From a virus (taxonomy: Duplodnaviria; Caudoviricetes), in IMG/VR virus record IMGVR_UViG_3300026536_000001, positions 1-59,586 of that record: a DNA stretch of 59,586 nucleotides; one strand, written 5' to 3'. The notes under the pieces were generated by a model. That model ran no database searches. It was not told the origin of the DNA and saw only the letters and a list, made by a program, of their open reading frames with translations. Position numbers and translations under genes: made by a program. This document shows positions 3,183-57,235 of the stretch, in pieces; position 1 is the stretch's first letter, and every line of letters starts with the position of its first letter.

Positions 3183-3346
3183 CTCGCCTTCGTCTCGTTT
3201 CGTCACAAAGCGTTCCACTTCGCATCGGATCTCGAATTCGTCTCGCAACAAACCACGGCACTACGCCTCGCCCCACTACGCTTCTCGGATTCGTCTCGCC
3301 TCGCAACACGCCACACCACATCGCAGCGAGACACGACGCGACTTCA
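3183..3346 (-). ncRNA. YG-NNN guide cassette, 3 units, all matching gene 3344-4315
   Basis: handles at 3183, 3231, 3284, 3337; decode to LFQSSFM, LKTGYLPY, LLNATIRD. Confidence 0.85.
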
Positions 3347-4315
3347 CTCCGCGGGAAAGATCAGTACTCCTAATCCGGCATCGAACCCGATTCCTTTCTC
3401 TCCAGTCACACTCGCCAACCACTCATCATTGCGGATGGTCTCATTGACCAAATTCTTTTTGGCCTCGGCATCCAGCTTCGTCCGCCGCATTAAAAAAGTC
3501 ATGAAACTCGACTGGAAGAGCGCACGCTTGACTTCTCTCCCCTTATTTTGCTTGGCGAGTTCATCCAATCCATCTTTCGCGATCGCGTCATAGTCGGCCG
3601 CGACCACGGTTCCGGTTTGAATCTCGCCGTTCGGTGGGATGACCGCCGCCGATCCGCTATTGGGTGATGGAGCCTTCGACCCTGCTCCGGTCCTCGTGGG
3701 TATCGGCGTCTTCCCAGCGGGCTTTCCTTTCCTCTCATACCCAAATACGTGAATCTTCTTCACACCTAGTAGTGTCCTCTCCCGTGTGGCATCTCCGCCT
3801 TCCGGAGTGAAGCCTGTCTTCAGCCGCTCGACATCGAACTTGGTTCCTTCCAGATATGGCAGATAGCCGGTCTTCAACAATTCATCCTTGAAGCCTTTAT
3901 CGGCCAGACTATGAGCGAATTTTGCCCAGGCGCAGTTCTCATAAATCTTGATCGGTTGGTGGTTGGGATCGCCAAACACGGTGTTGCCCTCCGCCCCGAG
4001 GGCCGCCCCCATATCCTCGGCCTCGCTGTCTTCGGGTTTGGCCAGCTTCCCTGGACGCAAAATATCGAGGGTATTCTTCCTGCCGAACCCTAAATGTTCC
4101 AAAGCGGGTTCGTCGTCGATCCTCTCCAACGTGTTGGGATCTAATTTGTACAGCTCTAACCGCACCATACAGGCCGGATCGGTTTGCTCTCCGGTTTGAC
4201 TGTTCGGCGGAAATTGATACACGATACAACTGGCTTTTCCGATCTCCCAGGTTCCTTCCTGAGCCCCGAATCCTCCTTTAACGGTATCTTTACTCGATAG
4301 ACTGATCTTTGGCAT
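3344..4315 (-). CDS. hypothetical replication-region protein (possibly ssDNA-binding)
   Basis: true start probably MPKISLSS (ATG 4315, SD AAGGAGAG); function inferred from context only. Confidence 0.65.
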   Translation of the reverse strand: MPKISLSSKDTVKGGFGAQEGTWEIGKASCIVYQFPPNSQTGEQTDPACMVRLELYKLDPNTLERIDDEPALEHLGFGRKNTLDILRPGKLAKPEDSEAEDMGAALGAEGNTVFGDPNHQPIKIYENCAWAKFAHSLADKGFKDELLKTGYLPYLEGTKFDVERLKTGFTPEGGDATRERTLLGVKKIHVFGYERKGKPAGKTPIPTRTGAGSKAPSPNSGSAAVIPPNGEIQTGTVVAADYDAIAKDGLDELAKQNKGREVKRALFQSSFMTFLMRRTKLDAEAKKNLVNETIRNDEWLASVTGEKGIGFDAGLGVLIFPAE

Positions 4316-4831: not shown

Positions 4832-6478
4832 TCATTCGTCCATTCCGAGGGCTTCGCGTTTGTCGAGGCTGTCATCATCGGCGATATCCTTCCGCGGCGT
4901 CCGTTCTGGCAGCTTCGTCAACGGCTTCGGTATCGCACTCACACTGAACACACTCTGGCTGAACCAACGCGGTGCCAGCTCCCGATTCTTTCCTAATAAC
5001 CACGATAAATGCGCGTCGGTGATAAACACCTCACACTGATCCGTCTCACTCCTCATCCCTCTCATGGTGGACTGGGCGAGTTCCTGTAAAGCTTCGGCAT
5101 TCATCCAATCCGGATCGTATCTGGTCTTGGCTTTAGCCAGCGGGGATTGGCTGGGCTGGAATGGCACCTTGGCCACAATAATAAACTCGCATTGACTAGC
5201 TGGGAAATCCCATCCGGTCCCGAACGACGGGGATACCAGGATCGCCGGTGCCGCGGCCTTCCTAAACTTATCCGCCGCTTCCGAAGCCGTGTCCGAGTCG
5301 GGATCGGTGGTATTCGCAATCATGAACCGGGCGTGCTGGGAATGCTGGAGCAAAAATTGTTGACGAGCGTAGGAGACCGTGTGGATCAATCCCTTCCGGT
5401 CCAATCTCGCGCCGATGATCTTATCGATATGCCGCACCCAGATGGCCAGCTCCTCCTCACTCGTCCTCCGATCCACTCTCACGGCCTTACCATTCGATCG
5501 CGGCGGGCAGAGATACACGGGCGAGCGTTCGGCCGGGAATATTCTCCCCCATTCCGTGAATTGTCCCTGGAGCCCGAGCTCCTCCAAGGTTCGTTTCTTG
5601 AGTGTCGCACTCATCAACACCACTCTCTGAACTCCCTGAATCAACAACCCGGTATATTTCTTAGGTGAGATCACATCCCAGGTCCAGGTCCTCCCGGCTG
5701 GCGTTGAGGCTTCGTACTCGAACACCCACTCCACTTTCGTCTTCCCCGGCAACGGCACCGGAAATCGCGCCAGCTTTTCCTCCAGCCTCTTCCAGCGTTT
5801 CAGCCGGTCTGTGCCTGTTGGAGTGAGGGCCCGGACACTGAGATCCTGAATGGCGATCCGGGCCAGTGGACGGATCTGAGCAACCCAGTGTTGCCAATCC
5901 GTGAGATTTCCGGTCTTGGGAGGAACCGTCACGATCCGCAACAAATGGAGTTCTCTATCGTCTATCGCGATCCTTAAATGATTGGCTAAATGTTTAACGG
6001 CATGAACCGCCTCATCCAGAATCAGCGTGTCGAAATTCCCGATCGCCTTGATCCCGGCCGCCAACCAATAACTGTAGTTCGACAACACCACAGGCGCGGC
6101 AGCAGCTTGTTGAACCGCGGCGACGTACCCCTCCGGGTTCGCACACCCACATCCCATCGGCCGTCCATCCTCACAGGTACGTGCCATGGGACACGGATAG
6201 TTCACCTGGCCTCGCACATCGACGAGATGATTGCGGAAGTCTTTGAGATATTGATCTTCTAAACCTTTCGTCGAAGTGAGAATCAGGGTTCGACCGGGCA
6301 GGCCGAGCTTCGCAATCGTCGCCGCCACCAGAGATTTCCCCGCTCCCGGCGGCAGTCCTAAACCCTGCACGGCGGAATCGCCGTATAAAGCCTGCTCGAC
6401 CGCTTCCAACTGCTCCGGCCGGTAGCTCTCATAGGAGAAACCGAGGTCTGCTGGCCGGAGGCCGTCCAGCGTGGTCAC
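4832..6478 (-). CDS. DinG/Rad3-like SF2 helicase
   Basis: YRPEQ Q-motif, PPGAGKS, ILDEAVH, MSATL, GWDFP, KVPF, RGMRSETD. Confidence 0.85.
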   Translation of the reverse strand: MTTLDGLRPADLGFSYESYRPEQLEAVEQALYGDSAVQGLGLPPGAGKSLVAATIAKLGLPGRTLILTSTKGLEDQYLKDFRNHLVDVRGQVNYPCPMARTCEDGRPMGCGCANPEGYVAAVQQAAAAPVVLSNYSYWLAAGIKAIGNFDTLILDEAVHAVKHLANHLRIAIDDRELHLLRIVTVPPKTGNLTDWQHWVAQIRPLARIAIQDLSVRALTPTGTDRLKRWKRLEEKLARFPVPLPGKTKVEWVFEYEASTPAGRTWTWDVISPKKYTGLLIQGVQRVVLMSATLKKRTLEELGLQGQFTEWGRIFPAERSPVYLCPPRSNGKAVRVDRRTSEEELAIWVRHIDKIIGARLDRKGLIHTVSYARQQFLLQHSQHARFMIANTTDPDSDTASEAADKFRKAAAPAILVSPSFGTGWDFPASQCEFIIVAKVPFQPSQSPLAKAKTRYDPDWMNAEALQELAQSTMRGMRSETDQCEVFITDAHLSWLLGKNRELAPRWFSQSVFSVSAIPKPLTKLPERTPRKDIADDDSLDKREALGMDE

Positions 6479-6548
6479 GATCTCGTCTCACGACACGGCA
6501 CCTCACCGCGCCCCAACACACGACGCTTCGCGGCGATTCTCGTCTTCG
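6476..6548 (-). ncRNA. YG-NNN guide cassette (1 unit) matching helicase N-terminus
   Basis: decodes to LDGLRPHDFGF vs resident LDGLRPADLGF. Confidence 0.85.
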
Positions 6549-6589
6549 TGGACGGCCTCCGATACTTCACCCTCATCGCGATTTCACTC

Positions 6590-7207
6590 TCATCGGGTCA
6601 CTCCCAAATCTCTCAACGCATTTTCCCGCGCCGTCACCAACCGCTGCCACTCCTCCATCGTCCCGCCTTTGTCCGGATGATAAATATGGGCAAACGATCG
6701 AAACGCTTTCTCGACATGATCCACCGTGGCCTTCGCGCCGGGCGGTATCTCCAGAACCTCGCGCCAGTATTCGCCCGCTTTTTCGGGAATGGCTTTGAAG
6801 CCGCGAAAGGCCCGCTGCATCATGTCGGAAGACCCCCAGCGTTCAATGCCGCGAATCGCTTCAATCGTCTTCTGAATGGCCCGCATGTTTTCCCAGGCCA
6901 GCGCATATTTATCACAAGCGAAACACATCTCCTGTTTCTTCAACATGAAATAAACGGCAATTCCAGGGTCGTCCAGCCGGTGGACTCCGGCTCTGGGCAT
7001 ACCGTCCGCACGCAGCGGAATATTGCTCGAAATGATCACACTCGCGGCGCGCAAGCGGTCCAGCTCGTCACAAAGCTGCCTGCGGATCTGGTCGAAGGAG
7101 CCGCTGAACTGGCTACGGACCCGGTGACCCGCGGGGGTGCGCGGGCGATCCTCCGGCCAGTAGAGCGGGTAGGACTCGATCGCTTTATTCATAAAAGCGG
7201 AGGCCAT
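6590..7207 (-). CDS. DnaJ/J-domain phage protein
   Basis: YPLYWP N-terminus, C-terminal HPDKGG J-domain motif. Confidence 0.85.
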   Translation of the reverse strand: MASAFMNKAIESYPLYWPEDRPRTPAGHRVRSQFSGSFDQIRRQLCDELDRLRAASVIISSNIPLRADGMPRAGVHRLDDPGIAVYFMLKKQEMCFACDKYALAWENMRAIQKTIEAIRGIERWGSSDMMQRAFRGFKAIPEKAGEYWREVLEIPPGAKATVDHVEKAFRSFAHIYHPDKGGTMEEWQRLVTARENALRDLGVTR

Positions 7208-7298
7208 CCAGGGTTCTGCTCATGGCTCGGCTTCACCTCGCTTCGGAACGGGTCACGCCACAGCAGCGCGATTCTCGCCTTCAGGACAGCCTCCGATG

Positions 7299-7616
7299 TC
7301 ATTGTTTCCTCTCGGGAGTGTTCGCCTCCCAGACTATTTCTCGTGGTAAGTCCATTTCTTCCACTAACTTAACTTGATCAGCGTACAGCTCTAGGTACGC
7401 GGCCAGATCATCCAGGGAGATCCCTAGAACTTCCGCCAATCTGCGGGCGACTTTCAAGCTCGGGTTCCTCCGGCCCAACAAAACGAGCGACAGATGCGAA
7501 TGCGATATCCCGACTTCTTTGCATAATTCTCTCAGGTTTAAATCCGGGCGAACCAACCCTTTCCGGCCTCTTCCTGTGGGTAATCCTTCGCTATCGAGCG
7601 ATCGAAAATGACTCAT
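7299..7616 (-). CDS. XRE-family HTH regulator
   Basis: LRELCKEVGISHSHLSLVLLGRRNPSLKVARRLA. Confidence 0.85.
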   Translation of the reverse strand: MSHFRSLDSEGLPTGRGRKGLVRPDLNLRELCKEVGISHSHLSLVLLGRRNPSLKVARRLAEVLGISLDDLAAYLELYADQVKLVEEMDLPREIVWEANTPERKQ

Positions 7617-16572: not shown

Positions 16573-16673
16573 ATCGACTTCGCCCCGATTCGCCTCACCT
16601 CGCGTCGTTTCTCGAATTCGTCTCGACTCGCCTCAGCCCGCCGCGCGGCGGCTCATTCCACCACTCGTCTTCA
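16573..16673 (-). ncRNA. YG-NNN guide cassette, 2 units
   Basis: handles 16573, 16611, 16664; one unit matches adjacent 16487-16507. Confidence 0.75.
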
Positions 16674-17236: not shown

Positions 17237-17713
17237 GGGATTTCCAGCCTGATCAACTGTTCCAGGAGTTGAGTCGCCACTTCACGATCGCCGCGCGAGA
17301 CGATGGCCTGGAGTTGCTCCCGGAACAGATGGGCGTCATTGCGGCAACAGAGGAAACCGATACGGAACCAGAAGCTCCCGTCATCAGGAGCCTCCATGAC
17401 GGTACCGACGGCTTCCATGAGTGTAGCGTTCAGGATCGAATCCCTCAACTTGTCCAGATGATTCACGATATTTCCACCCATTCGATATGAAGTGCTTCCT
17501 CCACCCGGATATTGCGGATCAGCTCCCCCTTCCCCATCAACTCCCTCAATCCATCGGCCTGTTCCCGAACCGACTCCTGATCCTCGGCTTCTCTTACAGC
17601 CCTCGTCCACCACGCCTCCGGTATGACGCTGGCGGGAACGATCGGTTCTTCCCAGTGGAAGGCTTCGGGATGGGAGATCGGGTTGACATACTCGAAGACG
17701 ACGCGATATTTGG

Positions 17714-18109
17714 TCACACCGTCCTCGTTCGACTTACAGCAGGCGGATAAAGCCACGTCACTCCGTCAGGTTTCGATAAATCCATATCCAGATGAATAAA
17801 GCTGAAGCCAATACCAACCCTTCTGAAACCTAACGCGATGGCATTTTCGACGATCACAAATCTTGTGTGACTATCCCTCGCTGTGATGTCAACTGCAAGG
17901 CCGTTTTCGTGCGAGGAGGAATCGACTCCTCCGACTTCTCGATTGTGTTCGGGTGTGCGATATCCACTACTGATGAAGAGTGGAAAGCCGCATTTGGACC
18001 GCAGCTCGTCGAGGAGCTTTACGAAATCGAGATTCATCTTCGAGCCGCTTCCAGGCGCATCTGGACTTGAGAATTCATCCGGTTGGAAATAGCGTATGCC
18101 TTCCCACAT
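17714..18109 (-). CDS. peptidase M15A-family endolysin
   Basis: SSGYRTPEHN..SSHENGLAVDI..FIHLD. Confidence 0.9.
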   Translation of the reverse strand: MWEGIRYFQPDEFSSPDAPGSGSKMNLDFVKLLDELRSKCGFPLFISSGYRTPEHNREVGGVDSSSHENGLAVDITARDSHTRFVIVENAIALGFRRVGIGFSFIHLDMDLSKPDGVTWLYPPAVSRTRTV

Positions 18110-18164
18110 GCTGTCGATTCCTCCACCTTAGATTTGCCGGAGGCCGTTAGGGATTGGATAGATT

Positions 18165-18242
18165 CTCGGCTTCACCCCAGAACGGCTCGAAACGGCCCAC
18201 ATCGGCCCACATCGGCTCAGCGCGAAACGACCCTCGGCTTCA
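18165..18242 (-). ncRNA. YG-NNN guide cassette (1 unit, 12 triplets) matching endolysin
   Basis: decodes to GFRSMGMGFSFG vs resident GFRRVGIGFSFI. Confidence 0.85.
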
Positions 18243-18274
18243 TCCCGTCCGGCCTCCGGTAAAATTCGCTTCCT

Positions 18275-18303
18275 ATCCTAGCAAAAAATTGCTACGCTAG
18301 CAA
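18275..18303 (-). promoter_or_regulatory. putative promoter TTGCTA-N17-TAGGAT for guide and endolysin
   Basis: hexamer spacing 17 on minus strand. Confidence 0.45.
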
Positions 18304-18305
18304 GT

Positions 18306-18524
18306 ATGCCGTTGACCTCTCTAGCTTCGGCGGAGGAATCCGAGACGGGCGCGTTCTCACGTTTGAGCGTGGTCCTGCATCGTTGGCGTGCCATGAGCGA
18401 ACTCACCCTCAAGGAAGTCGCTGATGAGATTGGGATTTCCACCTCCACGCTATCGAGATTCGAGCGTGGAGAAATGCCGGATGGGGAAACTCTCCGGAAG
18501 ATATTGTTGTGGTTGATGGCGTAG
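18306..18524 (+). CDS. XRE-family HTH protein
   Basis: LTLKEVADEIGISTSTLSRFERG. Confidence 0.85.
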   Translation: MPLTSLASAEESETGAFSRLSVVLHRWRAMSELTLKEVADEIGISTSTLSRFERGEMPDGETLRKILLWLMA

Positions 18525-18549
18525 TATACTGCCGCTCTGAGGAGGACCT

Positions 18550-19041
18550 ATGCCTAAAGTTTCGTTGAGTTCTCAGACCGCCGAACGTGAACCGGAATCG
18601 AGCAAGACTGATCCGGAACCGCATCCCGAACCTCAACCCTCACCGTCTCCTACACCCGAAAAACGAACTGTTACCGACCCTTCCGCCGCTTTGGCCGAGC
18701 TCGGCAGGCATTTATCTCAAGCCCGCGATCCGGATGTGGCCGCGCTCCAGAGGGCGCGAGGCGAGAAGGGTTGGGTTCATCTTACGTTTAGTGGCTTCTC
18801 GCCAGATGATACCGGAGTCTCTTTGCACCGCCAGTTCGCTGGAAAGATTTCTGCTCGCCGCTCCGACGGTATCTTAGTCACAATATCGGTTCCCACCCGT
18901 CGCACCGGCGATCCCAGCCGTATCGGTGTCGATCTGGTGAGCGCCTTCCAGCGGTTGGAGGAATACCGAGTATGCGCGTGTACGCCGACAGTCCCTTGTA
19001 CAGCCCACGTTCAAGAGCGGATGGCTGCCGCGAGAGGATAA
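18550..19041 (+). CDS. hypothetical protein
   Basis: SD GAGGAGG. Confidence 0.65.
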   Translation: MPKVSLSSQTAEREPESSKTDPEPHPEPQPSPSPTPEKRTVTDPSAALAELGRHLSQARDPDVAALQRARGEKGWVHLTFSGFSPDDTGVSLHRQFAGKISARRSDGILVTISVPTRRTGDPSRIGVDLVSAFQRLEEYRVCACTPTVPCTAHVQERMAAARG

Positions 19042-20689: not shown

Positions 20690-21415
20690 ATGCCCAAAGG
20701 TTCACCTCCCGGCCGCCCTTTCAAGAAAGGAGACATCCCGGCCACCAAAGGCAAGCACCAAGTCCGTGGCTATTATCCGGGAACCCGTAAGCAGCGGGAG
20801 AAGGCCCCGCCCCCTCCACCTCCGACCGAGGGTCAGATCATGGACTCCATCGTCCAGAAGTTGAAGGTCGCCGACTCTCCTCTCGCTGTGGCTTTCTCTT
20901 CGCTGGATGGCGGCTGGCGCAACTATATCCGGTACGTGATCCAGGCGGCAAAAGAGGGCGACACTGAGATGCAGCGGTTCATGAACGCGCTCAATGGTCT
21001 TTCCGCACGCGAACGGTTGACGGTCTCTCCCGAAGATGTCTGTGATATGGCTGGTGTAAGTGTGGAGGATCTGATCGGGGCGGTCCTGCCGTTAATTTGG
21101 CGCTACTCCCGCTTGAGAAGTTCCATCGTTGCGGCCACTCACGATCCGGTCGTCCTCCGAACCACAGCGGCGTATGCGATGCGTCCGGATAATCAGCACG
21201 ATCGCGAGATCTTCTTGAAGGCGACAGGAACATTGCCAATTCCGAAAGGCAGTGTGACGGCTATTTTTAATTCCGCTGGTTCTGGGCCTCCCCCTCCGAC
21301 CCCGGCAGGAATCCTTCCCCCGGTATCTTCAGACATTTCAGATATGGAAGCTCTCGACGATAAATTTTCAGCTAGCAACCCCCTTGACACATCATCCAGT
21401 TCGGATGAGAATTGA
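20690..21415 (+). CDS. probable terminase small subunit
   Basis: GRPFKKG N-terminus, directly upstream of terL; its stop TGA is the first base triplet of a guide handle. Confidence 0.55.
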   Translation: MPKGSPPGRPFKKGDIPATKGKHQVRGYYPGTRKQREKAPPPPPPTEGQIMDSIVQKLKVADSPLAVAFSSLDGGWRNYIRYVIQAAKEGDTEMQRFMNALNGLSARERLTVSPEDVCDMAGVSVEDLIGAVLPLIWRYSRLRSSIVAATHDPVVLRTTAAYAMRPDNQHDREIFLKATGTLPIPKGSVTAIFNSAGSGPPPPTPAGILPPVSSDISDMEALDDKFSASNPLDTSSSSDEN

Positions 21416-21530
21416 AGCCGAGAGGCGAAGCGCCGCGTGCCGTCGTGGGACGTAGTGACGTGAAGCGCCGTGAGCCGCGCTGGCGTGTTGTGCCGTGACG
21501 TGAACCGCAGTGGGGTGAGACGAATTCGAG
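21413..21530 (+). ncRNA. YG-NNN guide (20 triplets) complementary to a terL homologue
   Basis: decodes to LPWFVGNARLGFVYPEHGFL vs resident LPWFTGSARLGYIYPEQGFL. Confidence 0.9.
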
Positions 21531-21542
21531 TCCTGACCTGCG

Positions 21543-23696
21543 ATGTACAGCGAAAAAGTCACACAAGCCAAGATCGCGTTCGCGTTGAGGACCGGCTTCT
21601 TGAAAACGGAGCCGGTCTTCCACACCCGCAGCGAGTGTGATGCCGCAGTCTCCCACCTGAAGTCCAACTGGGACGAAGACTCACAGACCTGGAAGCGTGA
21701 GTTAACTCGCGAAGAGATCGCGTTTATAAAAAACGAAAGGTTTCTCTGTCGCGTCAGTTATAATTATTGGAAAACGCGGTACTGCTGGATCAAGTCCCGT
21801 GAAGATAAGCCCATCCGTTACACTCCATGGGTTAGTCAAACAATTCTGACAGACATATTTTCCGAGCACGAGATCGAAGGCATCGCGATCGAGTTACAGG
21901 CACTTAAGGCTCGACAGCTCGGAGTCTCCCGCGAAGTCTCTCTGGCGCAGCTCCATAGAGTTCAGTTCTTCAGTCACATCAACGCCATGATGGCTTCCTC
22001 TGCTCCAGCAAAGACGGCGAAACTCGGCGATATGTTAGCCTTCACGTTGGGTTATCAGCCGCACTGGTTACTGCCTCGTTTCGCTTTCGGCCCCCGTGAG
22101 CAAGCCCAGCACTTCGGCGGGGAGTGGTTCGAGCTAGAGACAGGCTCCTCACTCACACTCCAGTCCGGATCTCAAGTCACTGGTATCGCCCGCGGCACAA
22201 CCCCTACCGTTATTCATATTAGCGAGCTTGCCGAGTTCGAGTACCAAGGTCTCGGCCCCGAAGAAGTCATCGACTCATCTTTATTCCGCGCAGTCCATCC
22301 CTCCGCTCGTGTCTTCATGGTTCTGGAATCCACCGCACTAGGCCAGTTCAATTGGTGGCACAAGAAGTGGCTCTCCTCCAAGTCCGGCTGGCCGACACGC
22401 CGCTCCCGCCTGCGTCCGGTCTTCCTTCCATGGTTTACCGGAAGTGCGCGTTTGGGCTATATATACCCAGAACAAGGATTTTTGGACCGCTCTCCCGTCC
22501 CCGCCAACTACTCTCCCGCACTCTGGGCTCTCGAACACGCCAAGCGAGCCGAAGATTACGTCAAGTCGAACGATACTCTGCGGGCGTACATGGGAAGCAA
22601 CTGGACGATGCCTCGCGAACAAATCTGGTTCTACGAAGTCGAGCGCCAGCAAGCCGTTAACGAAAATCGCTTGAATAAATTTTTTCAAGAGATGCCAAGT
22701 AGTGATGACGAGGCTTTTCAAAGTACGAACGTCTCGGTCTTCTCCACTGAAACCATCACCGCGCACCGCGACCGCACCCGCGCTCCACTCGGCGTCTACG
22801 GCTTGATCGGCCCGGATATGTCCCCCCGCACGGTCCTCTTCTCCCGCGCTCACATCGATCCCAACTCTAAACCGATTGTGATCGATTATCCGTGGGGCGC
22901 TCACCCGCACCAATACGAACTGGTCCCTCTACGCTGGGACGGTTACGCGACCGATGACGGTTTAGACAAACTCTACATTTGGGAGATGCCCGAAGACGGC
23001 CAGATCTACGGCCTCGGTGTGGACACCGCCGACGGTATAGGTAAGGACCGCTCAACCATAGAGGTATTAAGAAAAGGCTCTCCTCTTCAACGGGCGGGTC
23101 AGTGTGCGGAGTTCGCCTCGGATAAGATCAACGCTTTGGACTTGACCCCATACATGATGGCTTTGGGAGCTCTCTTCAGTGTCAAAGACACGGATGGGAA
23201 TCGTCGTCAGTGCCGTGCGGCGATTGAATGCCGGGGCAAGGGTGATCTCTCCCAATTGGGCATGAGAATCGATGGCTGGAGAAATTTTCACCCTTGGCAA
23301 CGTATTGATTCTAAAACCATTTCTCCCGACAAAGTAAGCAAGTTAGGGGTATTTACAAACGAATGGTTTCGTCAATCGATTCAAGAATATCTGGTGAAAT
23401 TCCTTCGCGATGAAGAGGTTGAAATTCTCTCGCCGTTCCTTGTGAGTGAAATGCAGTCCCTTGAGTCTCGTGAGGACGTGCAGAGCTTCCGCGCGACATA
23501 CGGCGGCCACGATGACAGAGTGATGTCGCTCGGTTTTATCCTCATTTCGTTATATCAGTACGAGCCCAATCGTCCTGTTGCTGCACTGACACAGACGAAG
23601 CAATCGCGGGGGCAAGTTCGATTTGAACGCAAATACGCTTCCTGGCGACCCAACGATCAGGAGCGCCTGACTACTTTAGATGACGCCAGCGTATGA
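21543..23696 (+). CDS. terL: terminase large subunit
   Basis: LKARQLGVS Walker A, HISE Walker B, LESTA, GVDTADG and HDDRVM RNase H-like motifs. Confidence 0.92.
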   Translation: MYSEKVTQAKIAFALRTGFLKTEPVFHTRSECDAAVSHLKSNWDEDSQTWKRELTREEIAFIKNERFLCRVSYNYWKTRYCWIKSREDKPIRYTPWVSQTILTDIFSEHEIEGIAIELQALKARQLGVSREVSLAQLHRVQFFSHINAMMASSAPAKTAKLGDMLAFTLGYQPHWLLPRFAFGPREQAQHFGGEWFELETGSSLTLQSGSQVTGIARGTTPTVIHISELAEFEYQGLGPEEVIDSSLFRAVHPSARVFMVLESTALGQFNWWHKKWLSSKSGWPTRRSRLRPVFLPWFTGSARLGYIYPEQGFLDRSPVPANYSPALWALEHAKRAEDYVKSNDTLRAYMGSNWTMPREQIWFYEVERQQAVNENRLNKFFQEMPSSDDEAFQSTNVSVFSTETITAHRDRTRAPLGVYGLIGPDMSPRTVLFSRAHIDPNSKPIVIDYPWGAHPHQYELVPLRWDGYATDDGLDKLYIWEMPEDGQIYGLGVDTADGIGKDRSTIEVLRKGSPLQRAGQCAEFASDKINALDLTPYMMALGALFSVKDTDGNRRQCRAAIECRGKGDLSQLGMRIDGWRNFHPWQRIDSKTISPDKVSKLGVFTNEWFRQSIQEYLVKFLRDEEVEILSPFLVSEMQSLESREDVQSFRATYGGHDDRVMSLGFILISLYQYEPNRPVAALTQTKQSRGQVRFERKYASWRPNDQERLTTLDDASV

Positions 23697-23917
23697 ACGA
23701 AAAGGTCTTTCAATCCAGTCACTTGCAACGCGGCGTTTACGATCCGGCGACGGGGAACCTAGAGATCGAGTTCGTCAATGGTCAACGCTATACTTACGAG
23801 GGCGTGCCGCAAGAGAAATGGGAGGCCCTGACACGAGCGGTATCCCCCGGAAAGTTCTTGCATAACTGGATCAAAGGATCGCATAATTCTCGACCGATGG
23901 GCACCTCTGAGACCTGA
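23693..23917 (+). CDS. KTSC domain protein
   Basis: YDPATGNLEIEFVNGQRYTYEGVP..SPGKF..IKG. Confidence 0.9.
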   Translation: MNEKVFQSSHLQRGVYDPATGNLEIEFVNGQRYTYEGVPQEKWEALTRAVSPGKFLHNWIKGSHNSRPMGTSET

Positions 23918-24035
23918 AGCCGAGGCTCGATTTGGAGCGTGTCGCGACGGGTTGAAGCGGGGTGAGACGAATCCGAGTAGCGATGTGTAGCGTAGCGAGG
24001 CGTCGTGGTTTGATCTGGCCTGCGGTGAAGCCGAG
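23915..24035 (+). ncRNA. YG-NNN guide cassette, 2 units (terL sense; portal antisense)
   Basis: decode to AIECRGKG and RAITDLYYIY. Confidence 0.9.
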
Positions 24036-24052
24036 TAGCGGAGGACTGAGGG

Positions 24053-24724
24053 GTGCCCGTCGTAGACTACCGCTGTTCCAGTTGCTTCAGAGATGACTCT
24101 CATTATTATCCGTTAGCCTCGTTTCCATACCCCGAGGTTATCCAGTGCCCATTTTGCGCTTCGCAGTCCGAACGCAACTACATGGCCGGTTCTCCATCAG
24201 TCGGTTTTTCTCCTATAGTCATACATATCCGAAAAGATACTGGTGAAGTCTCGATCCCAGGCCGAGTGGATGATCCGGTTGAAAAAGGCTACGAACGAGT
24301 CGAAATACGAGACTTTAGAGCCTATGAAAAATTCCGCCGTCACGTCGAGTCTGTTGAGAAAGAGAAGTCGCAGTTCTTCATGGAAGCGTCGAATGCTTTC
24401 TTTGATGATGTCCGGCGCGAACATCGCCAATCCCAACGTACTCGTATCGAACAAGCCATCCGTCAAGGAGGCTATGAAGCCACCTATATCGATGAAGACG
24501 GCAACGAAAAGAAGCGATGGGCCCCTATAACCCAACGTGCTCGGTTCCTCTTCGATCTCGCGTGTAAGTATACGGACCGTACTCGTGATGAGCGCCGTAA
24601 GAAGCTGGCATCTGGCTCCCCCAACTTCCACTCCCGCGCCCTCGAACACAGGTCCTCTGAGGCTAGTGTCGTTTCGGGTGAAGCCAAACGCGCCTCCCTC
24701 TTCTTCCGCAAGGGCAAGCCGTGA
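24053..24724 (+). CDS. FmdB-like zinc-ribbon protein
   Basis: MPVVDYRCSSC..CPFC. Confidence 0.7.
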   Translation: MPVVDYRCSSCFRDDSHYYPLASFPYPEVIQCPFCASQSERNYMAGSPSVGFSPIVIHIRKDTGEVSIPGRVDDPVEKGYERVEIRDFRAYEKFRRHVESVEKEKSQFFMEASNAFFDDVRREHRQSQRTRIEQAIRQGGYEATYIDEDGNEKKRWAPITQRARFLFDLACKYTDRTRDERRKKLASGSPNFHSRALEHRSSEASVVSGEAKRASLFFRKGKP

Positions 24725-26793
24725 GATCCGACACCGGTAATTTTTACTTGGCCCCACCGATACTCAACCAGGATGGCGAGACTCCCACTACTGACGAACT
24801 CCTCGGCTGGACAAAAGAGTTCCGTCAACAAGCGCAGTCATACCTAAGGCTGCAACCAGCGCACCCGTACATCCAAGATGGTCTCGACCTCATCAACGGA
24901 GACTTCGCTAAATCGACCGTCTCGACTCTCTCCAACGCCCGCACCGACTTGACCGTACGTAACGAAAAAGAACTGATCGCCGCTCAGACCAACCTCCGCA
25001 TCATCCCGGCCATCACCACCTCCATCGAAGCCTTCAAAGAGCAAGGCGTTTTATTAGATAAAAGTTGGATGTGGTGGCAGCAGAAAACCTTCGCCGATCG
25101 CGTGATCCGTCAAGCCTGGCAGAACGCCGTGGCTTTGGGCACCGGCTACTGTTCGATCGGCTACGACCCGGACTACTACTGTGCTGGTAAAGGCGAGATC
25201 GCCCTCCGTTCTCATGGCCCTCTCGATATCCTCCCGATCGGCCTCCCGCACGACCACAGTATCCAAAAGGCATATGCGGTCGCCATCAAAGTCCCCACGC
25301 CCTACCACCAAGTCATCGAAATGTTCCCGGACTTCCGCGATCAGATCCGCCCCACCACCGAGATGAAGGGCCGCGGCACCGTCATGGCCCAATCGGTCAA
25401 GTTCGCTTCGGCCGTCCTCAAACGTTTCGGTCCGACCGCGATTCAGGAACGCGAGCCGATGCCGTGGGCGATGACGGATTTATTTTACATTTATATCGAC
25501 GACCGCACCGTCAACCGCACCGGCAAAACCATCGCCATGGGCGACCCCCACACCTCCTGGGAGTACTTCGTCCCTTCTGTCGGCGATCTGATCGAGACCG
25601 GCCGCGACGACGAAGGCAAGTCCGTTTACAAACAAGCGACTCCGGAAGACTGCCGCTTCTATCCGAACCGCCGCCGGATCATCTGCACCGATAATTTAAT
25701 CCTCACTCCCGACCCGACTCTCCAGGTCAACCCGGCCTGGCACGGCAAGGTCCCCGTCGTTCAATTCCGCGCCGATGACTGGCCTTGGATGTTTCTCGGT
25801 TTCCCCCTCTCCAAAGCCGGAATGCTGCTGGAAAAAGCCAATACCGAGCTCCTGCGCGGCATCGTCGATATGATGAACGTGCGCCTCTCCCCACCGACCG
25901 GCTACGATCGTAACACCATGGCCCGCTCCCTAGCCGAAACCATCAATCTGCGCGTCCCCAACCAACGCCTCGGCCTCGATTACGGCCTGGGTGGCGACCA
26001 ATTCAAACCCCTCCTCCCGGTCGAGTTCCTGAACGTCCCCTCCAACATCCCGGAATTGATCACTCAAAACGAAGCCCGTCAGACGCACTACATGGGAGTG
26101 GCCGACGCTTCGGCCCTGACCCGTGCCCGCCAGCTCCCGGCCGGAGATTCCACCGACCGCTTATTAGAAGCCCTCGGTCCTCTGGTTAAAGATATGTCCC
26201 GGAACATGGAGCTCTCGGTCACCGGGATTGGCGAGATGTGGGTTCCGCTCGTGTTTCAGTGGTGGAAGGCGGGGAAGCGTTTCCAGATCTTTGGTGAAGA
26301 CGGACTCGTTGAAGAGGATATCGATTTCAACCCCGGTTCTCTGGTCCCTCAGGACGTTCTCTCTCTCCCCAAACACTCCTCCTACTTTGAACGCGCCCGG
26401 AAACATTGCGCTCATTTCCACTATGCGATCGAGCCGTACAGCCTGCACGAACTCAATTCGATGACACGGAAGATGGCCTTCCTCCAGCTTTCCCGCTCCG
26501 GCTTCCCGATTTCCTGGAAGACCCTAGCCCGAGTATGGGATGTCAAGAACTTCGACTTCGACCCCAAAGATACCGATCCGTCCAGCCCGAATTTCGGCAA
26601 GAGCCTCCAGGGAGAGTTCCCGATCTGGCTGGCCCAACAAGAGATTATGGCTCGAATCGCAATGGCCACGGGAGGCGGAGGCGGTAAAGGGAAAGGTCCT
26701 CAAGGACGTCCTCCTACGGGTCAGCAGCCGCCTTCTTTGGAGCAAAAAGGCGGGTTTGGTGGGCGCTCCACCATCCGCGAATCCAGGAGGTAG
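24721..26793 (+). CDS. portal protein
   Basis: 690 aa after terL; LGTGY..GYD, HGKVPVV motifs typical of podophage portals. Confidence 0.8.
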   Translation: MRSDTGNFYLAPPILNQDGETPTTDELLGWTKEFRQQAQSYLRLQPAHPYIQDGLDLINGDFAKSTVSTLSNARTDLTVRNEKELIAAQTNLRIIPAITTSIEAFKEQGVLLDKSWMWWQQKTFADRVIRQAWQNAVALGTGYCSIGYDPDYYCAGKGEIALRSHGPLDILPIGLPHDHSIQKAYAVAIKVPTPYHQVIEMFPDFRDQIRPTTEMKGRGTVMAQSVKFASAVLKRFGPTAIQEREPMPWAMTDLFYIYIDDRTVNRTGKTIAMGDPHTSWEYFVPSVGDLIETGRDDEGKSVYKQATPEDCRFYPNRRRIICTDNLILTPDPTLQVNPAWHGKVPVVQFRADDWPWMFLGFPLSKAGMLLEKANTELLRGIVDMMNVRLSPPTGYDRNTMARSLAETINLRVPNQRLGLDYGLGGDQFKPLLPVEFLNVPSNIPELITQNEARQTHYMGVADASALTRARQLPAGDSTDRLLEALGPLVKDMSRNMELSVTGIGEMWVPLVFQWWKAGKRFQIFGEDGLVEEDIDFNPGSLVPQDVLSLPKHSSYFERARKHCAHFHYAIEPYSLHELNSMTRKMAFLQLSRSGFPISWKTLARVWDVKNFDFDPKDTDPSSPNFGKSLQGEFPIWLAQQEIMARIAMATGGGGGKGKGPQGRPPTGQQPPSLEQKGGFGGRSTIRESRR

Positions 26794-28395: not shown

Positions 28396-28442
28396 AAGGT
28401 TTGAGTCGCGAGCGGCCCCATCGGTCAGGGCCGCCCTTGGAA

Positions 28443-28578
28443 CACGATCTCACATCGCGACACGACAACTCACGGCGTTTCACGACAACGCGCGCCACGA
28501 CACCGCACGACGATACGCTTCTCGGATTCGTCTCGCATCAACTCATCTCGCCACGACCCGGGTCGGCCCTCGTATTCA
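28443..28578 (-). ncRNA. YG-NNN guide cassette, 2 units, antisense to the late operon
   Basis: one unit decodes to IDELGFERADREYF vs scaffold IDELGLEGADKDYF. Confidence 0.85.
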
Positions 28579-28675: not shown

Positions 28676-29659
28676 ATGCCTGTAGACACCAAAAGAGTTC
28701 AAGAATTGATCGATGAGTTAGGTCTCGAAGGCGCGGACAAAGACTATTTCGCCCGCGTTCTCACCACCAATGAGAAGGCGGGCGTTGCTTTTACCGGGCA
28801 GAGAGAGAGGCACGATAGGTTTACGCAGAAGACTCAAGAACTCTCTCAGAAAGAGAAAGAGTTGGAACAACGTGCCAATCAGCGCGACTTGGAGTTAGCG
28901 CAACAGTTAAACGCGGCGGAGGATCGCATCCGCAAAATCATGGCCGACTATGAGACTTCCGAGATCTCTCGTACTAAAGCAGAGACACTTCTTCGCCGTG
29001 TCAAAGAGATTTACAATTTGAGTGACGAAGACATACCGAAGCTCTCCGAGCCTCCCAAGCCCAAAGACACTCCTCCTCTCGACATCGACAAGAAGTTCAG
29101 CGAGTTCAAGGACACACTCCTCAAGGAACTGGCTCCCAACTTCCGCGCCCTCCCTCGAATCAACGTCATTCAGGCAGAGATTTTTGAGAGGCACCGCGAG
29201 CTTACCGGCAAGCGTCTCACCCAGCGCGAAATGGAAGAACTGATGGCCGAATCCATGAAAGACAACGGTCCGACTCTCATGGAAGCTTGGCGCGAAAAAT
29301 ACAAGATCGCCGATATCGAGAAGAAGAAGGAACGCGAGGAGTGGTCCAAAGAGGACCGGCAGAAGTGGGAAGACGAACAGAAAGCCAAGAACAGCGAAGA
29401 AGCGATGCGGCAAGTCCGCTCCACTCCCGACGGCCGCACTCAACACCTCTCTCCGGTCTTCCGCGAATACAAACGGCACGAAGACGGCACCTTCGCTTCT
29501 CAGCAAGCTCCGGATAAGGACAAGAACCGTCCGGCCGACAGAGTACCGGCAGTGCAGAATGGACAGAAGTTGAGCGGAGCCGAACGAGCGGCGAAGAGCT
29601 TCATCGAAAGAAGACAGGCGGGAGTGCCTCTGGGGAAAGAGGCTGTTGGGAAAACCTAG
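28676..29659 (+). CDS. capsid scaffolding protein
   Basis: charged coiled coil (FTQKTQELSQ) upstream of MCP. Confidence 0.7.
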   Translation: MPVDTKRVQELIDELGLEGADKDYFARVLTTNEKAGVAFTGQRERHDRFTQKTQELSQKEKELEQRANQRDLELAQQLNAAEDRIRKIMADYETSEISRTKAETLLRRVKEIYNLSDEDIPKLSEPPKPKDTPPLDIDKKFSEFKDTLLKELAPNFRALPRINVIQAEIFERHRELTGKRLTQREMEELMAESMKDNGPTLMEAWREKYKIADIEKKKEREEWSKEDRQKWEDEQKAKNSEEAMRQVRSTPDGRTQHLSPVFREYKRHEDGTFASQQAPDKDKNRPADRVPAVQNGQKLSGAERAAKSFIERRQAGVPLGKEAVGKT

Positions 29660-29694: not shown

Positions 29695-30237
29695 ATGACG
29701 GAACGGGACAAATTGATCTGGGCAGCCGGGTTTTTTGATGGGGAAGGCTGTGTCTCAATTGTTCGCAACATCGACAAGCGGCGACCTAAAGATGGGCATG
29801 TTCTGGAATATGAGAGGTTCCAACTCGTCGCTGTGGTCGTTAATAAAGCGCGTGCTCCGCTGGATGTCTTTGTCGAGTTGTTCGGAGGCAGCCTGCGGAC
29901 ACAGAAAGCCACCAATGGCTCGACGTACTGGAAGTATAAGCTGCATGGGAAAAAAGCCGTGCCGATGTTGGAGCGCCTTCTCCCGTATATGCTCACGAAG
30001 CGCGAAGTCACCGAGCTCGGTCTCCGATTCGAGGAGTACTTGGAAGCGACGACTCCGAAGCCCACGGTGTACCGCGACGAAGAGTCATTGAGTGTGCTAC
30101 GTGTGTTCCATGAGCAAGCACGAGTTATGAATATGCGGAACAAAGGCGGCATGAACTATGTGGAGGCGGAGTCTTCTATTTCAGATGTAAAATATCATCA
30201 AAAAGGAGGCTTATCGGGCATTAATCTAGTACATTAG
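29695..30237 (+). CDS. LAGLIDADG homing endonuclease
   Basis: LIWAAGFFDGEGCVSI..LFGG..LLPYMLTK. Confidence 0.9.
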   Translation: MTERDKLIWAAGFFDGEGCVSIVRNIDKRRPKDGHVLEYERFQLVAVVVNKARAPLDVFVELFGGSLRTQKATNGSTYWKYKLHGKKAVPMLERLLPYMLTKREVTELGLRFEEYLEATTPKPTVYRDEESLSVLRVFHEQARVMNMRNKGGMNYVEAESSISDVKYHQKGGLSGINLVH

Positions 30238-39256: not shown

Positions 39257-40540
39257 ATGGCGATTGCGGGTCCAGGTTATGTCGGCCGTTATGTAAAGGG
39301 CGACCTCATCGAATGGAAATTCACCATTCTTGTTGCGGATGTGCCATCCACGCTCGGCACCCCTGCGATCCGTGTCTATGAAGAAGGCAACGCGACGGAG
39401 TTCATCGGAGCCTCGGATGTGTTCACGGTAGATTACGACGGTAAGACCGGCTTATGCCGAGTCCAGTTGGACACTTCCGACAGTGGCTACAACGCAGGTA
39501 AAGCCTACGACGTGTTTATCTCATCGGGTGCAGTCGGCTTGACAAGTTTCGTTGGTGCGTGCGTCGGCCACTTCGCTCTTCTGCCCGAACCAGCGGACTT
39601 ACGTGCAGTCAATGGTGGCTCGACCGGCGCGACGGCGGGTAAAATGGAGCTGAAGCAACTGAAATTGGCTGGTGTAGGTGTAACTGATGCTGATGTACCT
39701 CTTGTAATCACAGCGGACAACGATGCAATTCGAGTAACACCCGGTGGCAATAAGGTTGCATTAAACGTGACTCTGGGTAACGGTGGTGTCGGGCTGCAGA
39801 TGTACGGAGGTACAAGTTCCTATGGAGCAGACATCGAGGTCGGCGCTAACGTCGCTTTCTTATCAACGAATAACGACTCCAGCGCAGCGGCGGTGACGAT
39901 AACGAACTTTACAACTGGCGCTTCATTGGACGTGATTCCGCCGGGCGGTGATGTGCTAAAGATTACCCCCTCTGGTACGGGTAAGGCGATCGACGCCCTT
40001 GGTCAGATCTACGTCAAAGCGCCAATAGGGGCATTTGATGCTGCGGTATGGCTAGACTCTACAGCCGCAGACGGAGCTGGTCTTAAATTGACGGGAGGTG
40101 TTGGACTTGATATACACGGTGATGGTGATAACGGTGCGGATGCCGTTGTTCTTACAGGTAATCGTAGGTCTATCGATGCAATCGGTAGAGTTACTATAGA
40201 AGGAGTAGGAACGGACGATAGTACAATCGAGCTATATCCGACGGGAACTGGAAAAGCTATCGATGCCCAAGGTCAGGTCCTGATAGCTCCCACGAACACG
40301 AACGACGACGCGATCAAGCTCGTCCCCAACGGCACCGGCCAGTCCATCAACGCCCCGGTCGAAGGGTTGATCGGTATCATCGAATCGCTCCGCCTCGCCA
40401 ACGCCGTTCTTGGCGGCAAGATCACCGGAGGCGGAACCACGACGGAGACTTTCCGCGATGTCAACGATACCAAAGACCGGGTGATTGCCACCGTCGATGC
40501 GTTTGGCGACCGCTCGGCAATCACACTGGACCTTGCATGA
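39257..40540 (+). CDS. tail fibre/spike-like protein with internal repeats
   Basis: PxGTGKAIDAxGQ repeats, Gly/Thr/Asp-rich. Confidence 0.6.
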   Translation: MAIAGPGYVGRYVKGDLIEWKFTILVADVPSTLGTPAIRVYEEGNATEFIGASDVFTVDYDGKTGLCRVQLDTSDSGYNAGKAYDVFISSGAVGLTSFVGACVGHFALLPEPADLRAVNGGSTGATAGKMELKQLKLAGVGVTDADVPLVITADNDAIRVTPGGNKVALNVTLGNGGVGLQMYGGTSSYGADIEVGANVAFLSTNNDSSAAAVTITNFTTGASLDVIPPGGDVLKITPSGTGKAIDALGQIYVKAPIGAFDAAVWLDSTAADGAGLKLTGGVGLDIHGDGDNGADAVVLTGNRRSIDAIGRVTIEGVGTDDSTIELYPTGTGKAIDAQGQVLIAPTNTNDDAIKLVPNGTGQSINAPVEGLIGIIESLRLANAVLGGKITGGGTTTETFRDVNDTKDRVIATVDAFGDRSAITLDLA

Positions 40541-41115
40541 AGACTTGCGCCATTTGTAACACTTCGTTCAACACACGCTGGTCATTCCAGGTCTACTGCT
40601 CGAAGGAGTGTCTCGCGGAATCTGGCCGTCGCAACGCGAAGAGGTGGCAACACGACAACTATGAACGAGCTATTGCGCGGATCAAGAAGTGGAGGGAGGC
40701 GAATCCTGAAAAGGTGAAGTCCTATGAAGCGAAATTGCCTATCGAGCGGCGACGTGAGATCAAACGCAACTATGCTCGTCGTCATCTAGCCGAGATCCAT
40801 GAGAAATCACGTATCTGGCGTCACCTGAACCCGGAGAAGGCTCAAGCGCAGAGCAAACGGTACCGGACTCGGAGAAAGGAAGCTGGAGGCCGGTTTTCGG
40901 ATGCAGAGTGGAACCTTTTGCTTTGGGTCTTCAAAGGTCGGTGTGCTTATTGCTGGCAGGTTCCGGACCGGTTGGAAACAGACCACATCATTCCGCTCTC
41001 TAAAGGAGGTACCAATGACATTGAAAACATCCTCCCTGTTTGCAAGCAATGTAATGCCCAAAAAGGGGTGCGCGTAATCCACCCACTCGACGAGGAACTC
41101 CTTATATGTCAATAA
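40537..41115 (+). CDS. HNH endonuclease
   Basis: CAYC..DHIIPLSKGGTNDIENILPVCKQCN. Confidence 0.9.
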   Translation: MKTCAICNTSFNTRWSFQVYCSKECLAESGRRNAKRWQHDNYERAIARIKKWREANPEKVKSYEAKLPIERRREIKRNYARRHLAEIHEKSRIWRHLNPEKAQAQSKRYRTRRKEAGGRFSDAEWNLLLWVFKGRCAYCWQVPDRLETDHIIPLSKGGTNDIENILPVCKQCNAQKGVRVIHPLDEELLICQ

Positions 41116-45205: not shown

Positions 45206-45302
45206 TGAAGACGAGGTGCGACGTGTTACGCCCGTGATCCGAACCGATATGAGGTGAAGTCGAGCAGTGATGTGCGATGCAGCGATACGGGACGAAGCCG
45301 AG
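45206..45302 (+). ncRNA. YG-NNN guide cassette, 2 units, enclosed by a 13-bp inverted repeat
   Basis: handles TGAAGACGAG, TGAAGTCGAG, CGAAGCCGAG; IR 45190-45202/45311-45323. Confidence 0.75.
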
Positions 45303-50405: not shown

Positions 50406-50640
50406 CTCGACTTCATCTCACCACATTCCGGCTCGCCGCAAAACTCGGCTTCGTTTCAGCTCGTCGCAAACCACTACACACCAAGACGATTCTCGAATTC
50501 GTCTCGCTTCGTGACAACTCGTAACACCGCAATGCGATTCTCGGATTCGTCTCGTTCCAGATCGTCTCGCCTCACGTCGCCACAAATCACCACTCGGCTT
50601 CGTCTCGTCTCGACTCGGCTCACATCGCCGCTCGGCTTCA
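50406..50640 (-). ncRNA. YG-NNN guide cassette, 5 units
   Basis: handles 50406, 50444, 50492, 50540, 50593, 50631. Confidence 0.85.
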
Positions 50641-51015
50641 CACGGTCATGGCCGGTATCGTCGGCAACGGGATCTCCGGATCAGGCTTCTCCTCCGGCTG
50701 CAAGATTGAACCCAGGTCCGCAATGGTCGCCACATGCCGGACGGTATTTCCGCGGATCAGTAGCAAACCACCGCAATGAAAACAGTTCGCCCAGTTTCCC
50801 GTCGCTGCAATCGGGTTCAACTGGGTCTCCCGGACATCGTGATTGGCTCGAACATGGACCGGCGACGGCTTCCGGGTTTGAGGCTTCCCCTTCCGGAGAG
50901 AACCCGCTTGATTCGCGTGCCAGCGTTCATGTGCGGCCAACCCTCTTATATCTATTGGTTTAGCGCAGATCGAACACGGCACTCGACGCATTATTATTTT
51001 TGTTTTTGCCTTCAT
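50638..51015 (-). CDS. C2H2 zinc-finger protein
   Basis: CSIC..HERWH; CFHC. Confidence 0.6.
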   Translation of the reverse strand: MKAKTKIIMRRVPCSICAKPIDIRGLAAHERWHANQAGSLRKGKPQTRKPSPVHVRANHDVRETQLNPIAATGNWANCFHCGGLLLIRGNTVRHVATIADLGSILQPEEKPDPEIPLPTIPAMTV

Positions 51016-57231: not shown

Positions 57232-57235
57232 AGCT

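Follow-up and report, generated by a model that had tools for sequence, protein, structure and literature searches.

The closest described counterparts of the element analyzed here belong to Viral Interference Programmable Repeat (VIPR), a phage-borne system that combines an ancestral RAMP protein, Vipr, with vrRNAs (10.64898/2026.04.26.720920). Each vrRNA comprises 9–16 pentamers, in which a fixed GGY is joined by two hypervariable bases, and then a 3′ tail; double-stranded DNA is addressed by a '1-nt skip rule', with the skips at wobble positions and sites on both strands, and the outcome is transcriptional silencing. Seven types, alternative repeat consensus motifs and other array architectures (staggered and ribozyme-interspersed) are described in the same paper, according to which RAMPs are not detectable by sequence (10.64898/2026.04.26.720920). 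Each pentamer is bound by one protomer; the scaffold trinucleotide is flipped out, and every three DNA bases correspond to five of RNA (10.64898/2026.04.26.720927). Solo vrRNAs, scored by the skip rule against a null of shuffled guides, have been described on F5 satellites and VIPR-null phages (10.64898/2026.10.15.759431), and a further 21 clusters of VIPR-like arrays carry non-canonical fixed trinucleotides, including GAC/NN, CAC/NN, WGT/NN and TGH/NN (10.64898/2026.10.21.760802). The first descriptions of VIPR date from 2026 and present it as a weapon used between mobile elements; the clades analyzed were reported to be without self-targets. Here, we analyze a phage genome of 59,586 bp (the whole of IMG/VR record IMGVR_UViG_3300026536_000001, a complete virus record with direct terminal repeats, referred to below as the window) that contains pentamer arrays of this general kind, and focus on a solo unit at 18165–18246, next to the endolysin gene.

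We find that this unit is very probably a VIPR guide with a real match in the endolysin gene. The fuller statement, that it is a solo vrRNA gene of the phage's VIPR system that addresses the phage's own endolysin gene, as a cis-encoded form of self-regulation, is given a probability of roughly 0.55.

The unit upstream of the endolysin gene and its code

Runs of eight pentamers of the form C-R-N-N-N occur 74 times in the window and not at all in 100 shuffles, and a CTCGGCTT-like motif is present in 26 copies where 1.4 are expected. A strict pattern search (by regular expression) resolves these features into 34 units with 289 pentamers, and 35 tracts of at least six pentamers are present, distributed over 13 loci. 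Each unit is built from an 8-nt repeat (CTCG, two variable bases, TT; CTCGGCTT-like) followed by 5–20 pentamers with the form C-R-N1-N2-N3, and unit lengths change in 5-nt steps. Across the 289 pentamers the first position is C in 100% and the second a purine in 100% (145 G, 144 A), whereas N1 is a pyrimidine in 68% and the final two bases are diverse. Tracts are separated by the 8-nt repeat and one conserved pentamer only; a copy of the repeat is found on the 3′ side of the C-R-N-N-N strand in every tract, and the copy on the 5′ side is absent in two. Long open reading frames (ORFs) cross the arrays, but a protein-coding role was rejected by inspection: because unit lengths step by 5 nt, no reading frame is kept across the arrays. 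A search of Rfam gave no family at gathering score anywhere in the window.

The solo unit sits between the start of the M15 peptidase (endolysin) gene and a divergent helix-turn-helix gene (18306–18524). On the plus strand it comprises a repeat (18165–18172), 12 pentamers (18173–18232) and a terminal copy of the repeat (18233–18240) that is followed by the first conserved pentamer; its pentamers read C-R-N1-N2-N3 on this strand and N-N-N-Y-G on the minus strand. The original prediction, made from the sequence before the present analysis, had described a sense-orientation guide against the endolysin in the 5′ leader of that gene, and this description holds, in that a guide-like element is present upstream of the endolysin start, on the endolysin strand, and its variable bases have coding-strand sense. 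When the three variable bases of every pentamer are read on the minus strand and joined, they also reproduce exactly the 36 letters and 12 residues that had been proposed, and the best six-frame peptide match in the whole window is indeed the proposed one, at 17795–17830 (−), with 8 of 12 residues. An 8/12 peptide match was reached in 1 of 300 triplet-order shuffles and by 12 of 300 units drawn from the pool of all triplets. As plain nucleotides, the match (23/36) is not significant, with 25 of 100 shuffles reaching 23.

The match to the endolysin gene is confirmed as real under the two-of-three code. In this scoring (the NN rule) only N2 and N3 are counted, with one free base between dinucleotides, and the best site genome-wide is compared with the best sites obtained after shuffling the order of the pentamers; both the scoring and the shuffled-guide null were reached independently here and are the same as in 10.64898/2026.10.15.759431. 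The solo unit matches 20 of 24 informative positions at the endolysin site, its best in the genome (the runner-up scores 17), and a score of 20/24 was obtained in only 4 of 3000 order shuffles and, when the informative bases were shuffled instead, in 2 of 2000. Unit and site are 343 nt apart. Triplet or amino-acid decoding, by which the match had originally been proposed, is not the operative code, as N1 matches at chance level only and N2 and N3 carry the information; the peptide similarity is a by-product, because it is codon positions 1 and 2 that match. Two other ways of reading the units were tried and rejected: peptides or contiguous 3n-mers, for which full-triplet nucleotide scoring is significant in only 1–2 of 34 units, and the scaffold purine as a coded base, for which a hand count on two units failed and the pair (R,N1), taken as informative, scores at background. 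The suggestion that a second unit (56668–56721) may hit the same gene, at 17987–18007, fails: the alignment requires a 1-nt register slip and reaches 9/14, the best site in the genome (12/14) is elsewhere, and 65 of 200 shuffles do equally well.

The behavior of the solo unit is shared by others in the genome. With the NN rule applied to 35 units, the best site was equaled by 0–1 of 200 order shuffles in seven units and by 6 of 200 in an eighth, and all eight best sites are within 1,503 nt of their own unit when counted across the genome ends (unit–site distances of 14–1,503 nt, in both orientations). The identities of the eight self-matches are 82–93%. A 1-nt skip outscores skips of 0, 2 and 3 in 8/8 of these units, N2N3 is the best informative pair across all eight, with one tie, and the mismatches concentrate at N1, which coincides with codon position 3 in 9/9 cases. 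The C-R-N strand has coding-strand sense in five of the self-matching units and the opposite sense in three. The genes matched by solo units include those for the helicase, the endolysin and a Sak4-like protein (a recombinase), together with three large unknown genes. The system is a known one, and its code is that of VIPR, with two bases read out of every three.

At 18264–18305, just upstream of the helix-turn-helix gene, lies a 6-4-6 palindrome (TAGCAA, four A, TTGCTA) together with part of a third copy. It looks from its sequence like an operator, and the divergent control region in which it would lie also contains the solo unit. A scan for sigma-70 consensus promoters and terminators over 17600–18700 gave one promoter-like site (17683–17710, +) and no terminator; as the host is unknown, this result is uninformative.

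The Vipr-like protein and comparison with described systems

IMG/VR was scanned for the repeat together with pentamers, and four other contigs with multi-unit CTCGGCTT-type arrays were recovered (30 of the 34 viral stretches examined had one unit of 6–8 pentamers and were taken as probable chance matches). The sole ORF of the window that is common to all four contigs, 57236–58066 (−), adjoins the largest array. It matches no Pfam or PHROG family and has 271 uncharacterized homologues; the likely start gives a protein of 233 aa, recorded in identical form on 18 contigs, and the family has an invariant glycine-rich motif at the C terminus. The AlphaFold2 model of the protein (pLDDT 82) was compared with the Protein Data Bank (PDB) using Foldseek, giving 99 matches at E ≤ 1e-3 with TM scores of approximately 0.35–0.5, and all among those listed are Csm3, Cmr4, type VII Cas7 or Cas7-11. 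Of the 36 viral loci with a vipr homologue, 32 have a pentamer array just downstream of it that reads C-R-N-N-N on the strand opposite to the gene; the four remaining loci include one that ends 212 nt past the homologue. The small ORF that is the candidate accessory gene has a homologue directly 3′ of vipr in 6 of 35 related loci; in the window, the array separates the two genes. Each of the replication genes that neighbor vipr in this phage is conserved beside the homologue in at most one locus of this set; the module therefore travels among unrelated phages.

Searches by sequence were largely silent. With the Vipr-like protein as query, tblastn matched none of 50,697 phage records; profile searching of PDB sequences returned only two spurious matches (E 1.3), and no solved Vipr structure turned up in the copy of the PDB that was used. 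Alignment of the vipr-like family with the Vipr protein of Escherichia phage SUSP1 using hhalign gave a probability of 1.6% over 122 colinear columns. As the profile comparison with SUSP1 is not significant, the system is filed as VIPR on its architecture and code, not on sequence homology. Neither cas genes or families nor an integrase were found among the ORFs scanned (about 50, against Pfam and/or PHROGs; the scan was non-exhaustive and most ORFs have no family).

As in the type II VIPR of SUSP1, a small RAMP-fold protein adjoins tandem pentanucleotides with three fixed and two hypervariable bases, one target base is skipped per dinucleotide, at the wobble position, sites are present on both strands, and the system is phage-borne, with a minimal locus and one small ORF, here a candidate accessory gene. 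The two systems differ in their scaffold, which is C-R-y here (g-Y-G on the other strand) and G-G-Y in SUSP1, and in what follows the pentamers: 8 nt and one conserved pentamer here versus a structured tail of approximately 40–60 nt (a pseudoknot in the SUSP1 clade), a difference that may be clade-specific. They differ also in the distribution of the units, which are here scattered over 13 loci, with eight units matching the phage's own genes at ≥82%. The VIPR-like arrays with non-canonical trinucleotides share with the present system a 5-nt period, a trinucleotide other than GGY and a Vipr-like fold, and the CAC/NN class resembles the commonest pentamers here; 8-nt separators, dispersed units and self-matches go unmentioned in the passages on these arrays. 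The orphan vrRNAs of F5 satellites and VIPR-null phages likewise lie away from a vipr operon, and some are aimed at vipr with a wobble skip (compare unit 57167–57221, below). However, they belong to vipr-less elements and redirect or attack foreign VIPR, whereas here the phage carries vipr and the solo units stand beside the matched gene.

More distant comparisons can be made with CRISPR-associated systems. Type III CRISPR-Cas provides the best structural matches (the Cas7 proteins Csm3 and Cmr4), and its filament resembles the one proposed here in binding the guide with one protomer per guide repeat, but the present arrays have repeats of 8 nt and a period of 5 nt rather than 6, with neither repeats of 24–40 nt nor contiguous spacers. 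In CreTA-type crRNA-like regulators (type I), a guide-like RNA is encoded beside a gene that is repressed through partial complementarity; the effector family is another one and pairing is contiguous, and the analogy is functional only. The non-GGY scaffold, 8-nt separators and near-cis self-matching solo guides were not found together in the available passages of the VIPR literature, its supplementary figures and tables aside, and the combination of scaffold, separators and near-cis solo guides suggests self-regulation. Whether or not that reading holds, the code of VIPR extends to a scaffold that lacks the canonical guanines, and the 8-nt separation constrains models of how Vipr recognizes and measures its RNA.

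Own gene or foreign gene as the target

Inverted repeats enclose five of the seven solo loci examined, including the unit upstream of the endolysin gene (Table 1), and the 6484, 7226 and 18165 cassettes have nearly identical arms with a GGAGG-like core. The bracketing stem is present in the minimum-free-energy fold of the minus-strand RNA and may be a signal for processing or insulation, and the shared arms suggest that the cassette may have been copied within the genome. In the 6484 cassette, the left arm lies inside the first helicase codons and inside the predicted site of its own guide. At 11 of the 12 array loci whose orientation is clear, the long flanking ORFs run in the N-N-N-Y-G sense (by ORF reading, not gene calls), and in SUSP1, which was fetched for comparison, the GGYNN strand is the vipr strand; on these two arrangements, N-N-N-Y-G is the putative RNA strand. 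The orientation of the flanking ORFs favors transcription of the units as parts of the operons that host them, which for the solo unit in question means the leftward leader of the endolysin gene.

From the computed features (array anatomy, protein fold, gene–array association, two-of-three match, wobble phasing and the closeness of units to genes) we infer an RNA strand, its processing, DNA binding and silencing, with the phage's own gene as the physiological target. Transcription of the endolysin operon, through its leftward leader, would include the unit, and the bracketing stem would help to release it from the transcript. By analogy with the described Vipr filaments, one protomer per pentamer would hide the three scaffold bases and present the two variable bases, and a filament of 12 protomers would read double-stranded DNA at two bases of every three and bind 17795–17830. 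Because the guide has coding sense, it would pair with the template strand. Filament binding would hinder transcription of the endolysin gene, amounting to dampening or timing through a cis-encoded negative loop that acts as a brake on the lysis gene, and the seven other dispersed units would act likewise on their own neighboring genes.

The nearest related phages, reached via the 717-aa protein (44–70% identity), are four genomes of 52–61 kb (G001–G004, via loci L261–L265) that share several genes with the window at approximately 65–75% nucleotide identity. None has a vipr homologue or pentamer arrays, which means that the VIPR module and the 13 array loci were all either gained here or lost elsewhere. 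For seven of the eight self-matching solo guides, the fit is better in their own genome than in G001 and G002, the closest two of the four. In the endolysin itself, the best score among homologues was 19/24 in 80 IMG/VR loci (≤53% identity) and again 19/24 in 80 metagenome loci (≤65%), one short of the score in the phage's own gene. A competitor's endolysin, which the original prediction had proposed as the target, is unsupported because no closer endolysin is present in these 160 homologous loci, where the homologues have at most 65% amino acid identity; the search for a closer homologue that had been suggested at the time thus ended without one. Pentamer arrays were absent from all 160 loci.

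Several points weigh against self-regulation. Silencing its own helicase or endolysin would obviously be costly to the phage. In the discovery paper, most of the top natural targets are matched perfectly and the clades tested showed no self-targeting at ≥80% NN identity (10.64898/2026.04.26.720920), whereas here eight units match their own genome, at 82–93%. In a complete VIPR-bearing phage examined here, G008, a self-match was found in 0 of 15 units. One of the eight self-matching guides, unit 21423, fits the VIPR-less relative G002 at 34/40 and its own genome at 33/40, and unit 57167–57221, the last of the main array, fits the vipr of relatives at 18/22 and the phage's own vipr (57537–57569) at 16/22. 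The fold z-score of the bracketing stem is modest (−1.88). As to the strand, a point against transcription of the units with their host operons is that the copy of the repeat at the 3′ side of every C-R-N-N-N tract would equally fit a 3′ tail on that strand. Finally, hhalign against the alignment of the SUSP1 Vipr family gave a probability of 1.5% (E 0.033), with only the C-terminal strand-helix-G-loop aligned.

Self-matches are scarce in other VIPR-bearing loci. Full-triplet scoring found one significant self-match in 90 units from relatives, and the NN rule found two in 105, both in L092, a 6-kb IMG/VR contig whose repeat type is that of this phage, where the matched sites are 68 and 568 nt away (17/20 and 16/18, respectively). 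The nearer of the two, from unit 3995–4044 to 3898–3927 (17/20, 68 nt), lies within the vipr gene of the contig itself, where it covers the invariant G-loop codons and again skips the wobble base. In three other complete VIPR-bearing genomes, G008 among them, the arrays are beside vipr only, and none of the 105 units from relatives has a guide match to the window.

The leading alternative, possible but in our view rather unlikely, is that the filament is a weapon against related phages in co-infection, whose endolysin gene it would be sent to. The gene of this phage would then be a near-match by homology only, protected by four mismatched informative positions, and a guide placed next to the resistant allele would stay together with it through recombination. 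This is consistent with the published role of VIPR in conflict between mobile elements, in which the wobble skip makes guides robust to synonymous drift. It is consistent also with the behavior of distant M15 genes, in which the solo unit fits the homologous site above background: 23 of the 80 metagenome loci score ≥18, with the 12 listed all at the homologous position, nearly all of the top scores across the endolysin loci fall at the homologous site, and when the 80 IMG/VR loci were scanned with shuffled guides, 8 of 1600 scans gave a score of 18. The four relatives without vipr and arrays would be defenseless targets, the phage's own matches are imperfect, and linkage of guide and resistant allele would also explain the closeness of units to matched genes. 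Set against this are the 160 loci in which no endolysin fits better than the phage's own and the seven of eight solo guides that fit their own genome best. Moreover, the identities of the own-genome matches exceed the ≥80% level of targets in the VIPR papers, making self-immunity by mismatch doubtful, and the roughly 25 guides of the main arrays have no such linkage to homologous genes in the phage's own genome; location matters for the solo units, and this is not required of a pure weapon. If the phage's own alleles were nevertheless immune, guide and resistant allele would form a linked module, a type of selfish linkage new to phage competition.

The main array itself holds a guide that points outward. 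Unit 57167–57221 scores 17–18/22 at a conserved vipr site in four loci (L085, L077, L090 and L082, two of each score) and 16 in four more, while shuffled versions of the guide reached 16 in 7 of 960 trials and 17 in none. The matched vipr site encodes the motif F-A/S-T-R-V-x-N-G. By its sequence, the unit looks like a guide aimed at rival VIPR systems, a kind already published. As both this guide, which lies beside vipr, and unit 21423 fit relatives better than their own genome, non-self aiming occurs in this phage. With the exception of the vipr-directed guide, no significant site was obtained for guides of the main arrays, whether in the phage's own genome, in the four VIPR-less phages or in the 461 kb covered by loci of other VIPR-bearing phages.

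A reading of the solo units as mobile or decaying cassettes, with a resemblance to nearby genes that reflects their origin or landing place rather than a present function, is improbable; they would be either mini-elements that settle near a recognized site or once-perfect guides that have drifted. Guide-directed transposons that end beside a site matched by their own guide are known, and the inverted repeats around five of seven solo loci, with near-identical arms in three, look like copies of one cassette; dispersed units are absent from the other complete VIPR-bearing genomes examined, and the self-matches are imperfect. However, the unit–site distances vary from 14 to 1,503 nt, in both orientations, unlike insertion at a fixed offset, and no transposase is found beside the units among the annotated ORFs (annotation being incomplete). 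The pentamer scaffolds are intact, with C and R at 100%, which argues against decay. A chance match among many units and possible sites, to which the approximately 35 units, two reading directions and the frequency with which shuffles reach the 23/36 nucleotide match lend some color, and by which the 8/12 peptide match alone could be explained, is very improbable given how rarely shuffles reach 20/24, the gap to the runner-up, a codon-phased site only 343 nt away in a 59.6-kb genome and the seven other units that behave alike.

Self-regulation thus stands as the preferred reading, and it may be only one part of a larger design. We tentatively propose, at lower confidence than for the endolysin unit, that VIPR has been turned inward in this phage: guide cassettes enclosed by stems in the leaders and trailers of its own operons would be cut from the messenger, loaded on Vipr and silence neighboring genes, forming an RNA-programmed network for gene timing in which the cassettes may spread as small mobile units. 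Eight guides each fit a gene of their own genome within 1.5 kb, at the identity expected of targets and by the published code including its wobble skip. If these fits are functional, VIPR would also be a means by which a virus controls its own transcription, and its compact cis design, with guide and target co-inherited, could then be borrowed for programmable feedback circuits. If the inward reading is true, the system would be a possible bridge between guide-based warfare and guide-based regulation.

Feature coordinates and neighboring genes

The positions of the units, matched sites, bracketing arms and principal genes are collected in Table 1.

Table 1. Features of the array system in the window. 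Scores are matched/informative positions under the NN rule.
Feature	Position	Strand	Matched site or partner	Score	Remarks
Solo vrRNA-like unit	18165–18246	−			putative RNA strand
Site matched by solo unit 18165–18246	17795–17830	−		20/24	1-nt-skip rule; endolysin codons 94–105; skipped base at codon position 3
M15 peptidase (endolysin) gene	17714–18109	−			131 aa; PF08291, E 8.7e-16; phrog_894 endolysin
Left arm of inverted repeat around unit 18165–18246	18133–18154		18242–18263
Right arm of the same inverted repeat	18242–18263		18133–18154		22 nt; 82% complementary
Other bracketing arms	6456–6468		6549–6561
Other bracketing arms	7191–7209		7284–7302
Other bracketing arms	23895–23915		24042–24062
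Other bracketing arms	28427–28436		28561–28570
vipr-like gene	57236–57937	−			233-aa RAMP/Cas7-fold protein; ORF open to 58066, homologues start near M44
Small ORF, candidate accessory (vap-like) gene	56203–56460	−			no Pfam or PHROG family
Main array	56488–57235	−			~14 units, some degenerate; downstream of vipr
Array	58998–59293	−			6 units and terminal repeat
Unit	59251–59285		1148–1168	13/14	~1.5 kb away across genome ends
Three units	3183–3349	−
Unit	3239–3283		3852–3878	16/18	site in adjacent 391-aa gene
Solo unit	6484–6546	−	6438–6470	19/22	11 pentamers; 5′ leader of helicase gene (4832–6478, −); site at helicase codons 3–13
Solo unit	7226–7281	−			8 pentamers; no significant NN-rule match
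Two units	16581–16671	−			no significant match
Solo unit (unit 21423)	21415–21530	+	22424–22483	33/40	20 pentamers; upstream of 717-aa gene
Two units	23917–24035	+
Unit	23925–23969		23220–23246	16/18
Unit	23978–24027		25464–25493	17/20
Two units	28451–28576	−
Unit	28451–28520		28708–28749	23/28	site near start of gene 28676–29659
Two short units	45232–45302	+			5–6 pentamers; no significant match
Array	50406–50644	−			5 units; no significant match in own genome
Single unit	51590–51666	−			11 pentamers; downstream of polA; no significant match

Beside intact members, the main array contains degenerate ones, with 1-nt slips and non-conforming stretches (56584–56711, 56808–56856 and 57107–57158). 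At 56022–56066, just upstream of a UDG-family gene (55344–55955) and the main array, nine C-R-N-N-N pentamers stand in a row but lack the 8-nt repeat; this is probably a chance run or a degenerate unit and is not included in the unit counts.

The family A DNA polymerase of the phage is seemingly split, with an ORF for the polymerase domain (51660–53102) and one for the 3′–5′ exonuclease (53663–54394), and an unannotated ORF (53329–53724) between them. The exonuclease ORF is followed by an HNH endonuclease ORF (54385–54861), and further HNH ORFs are present at 29695–30237 and 40537–41115.

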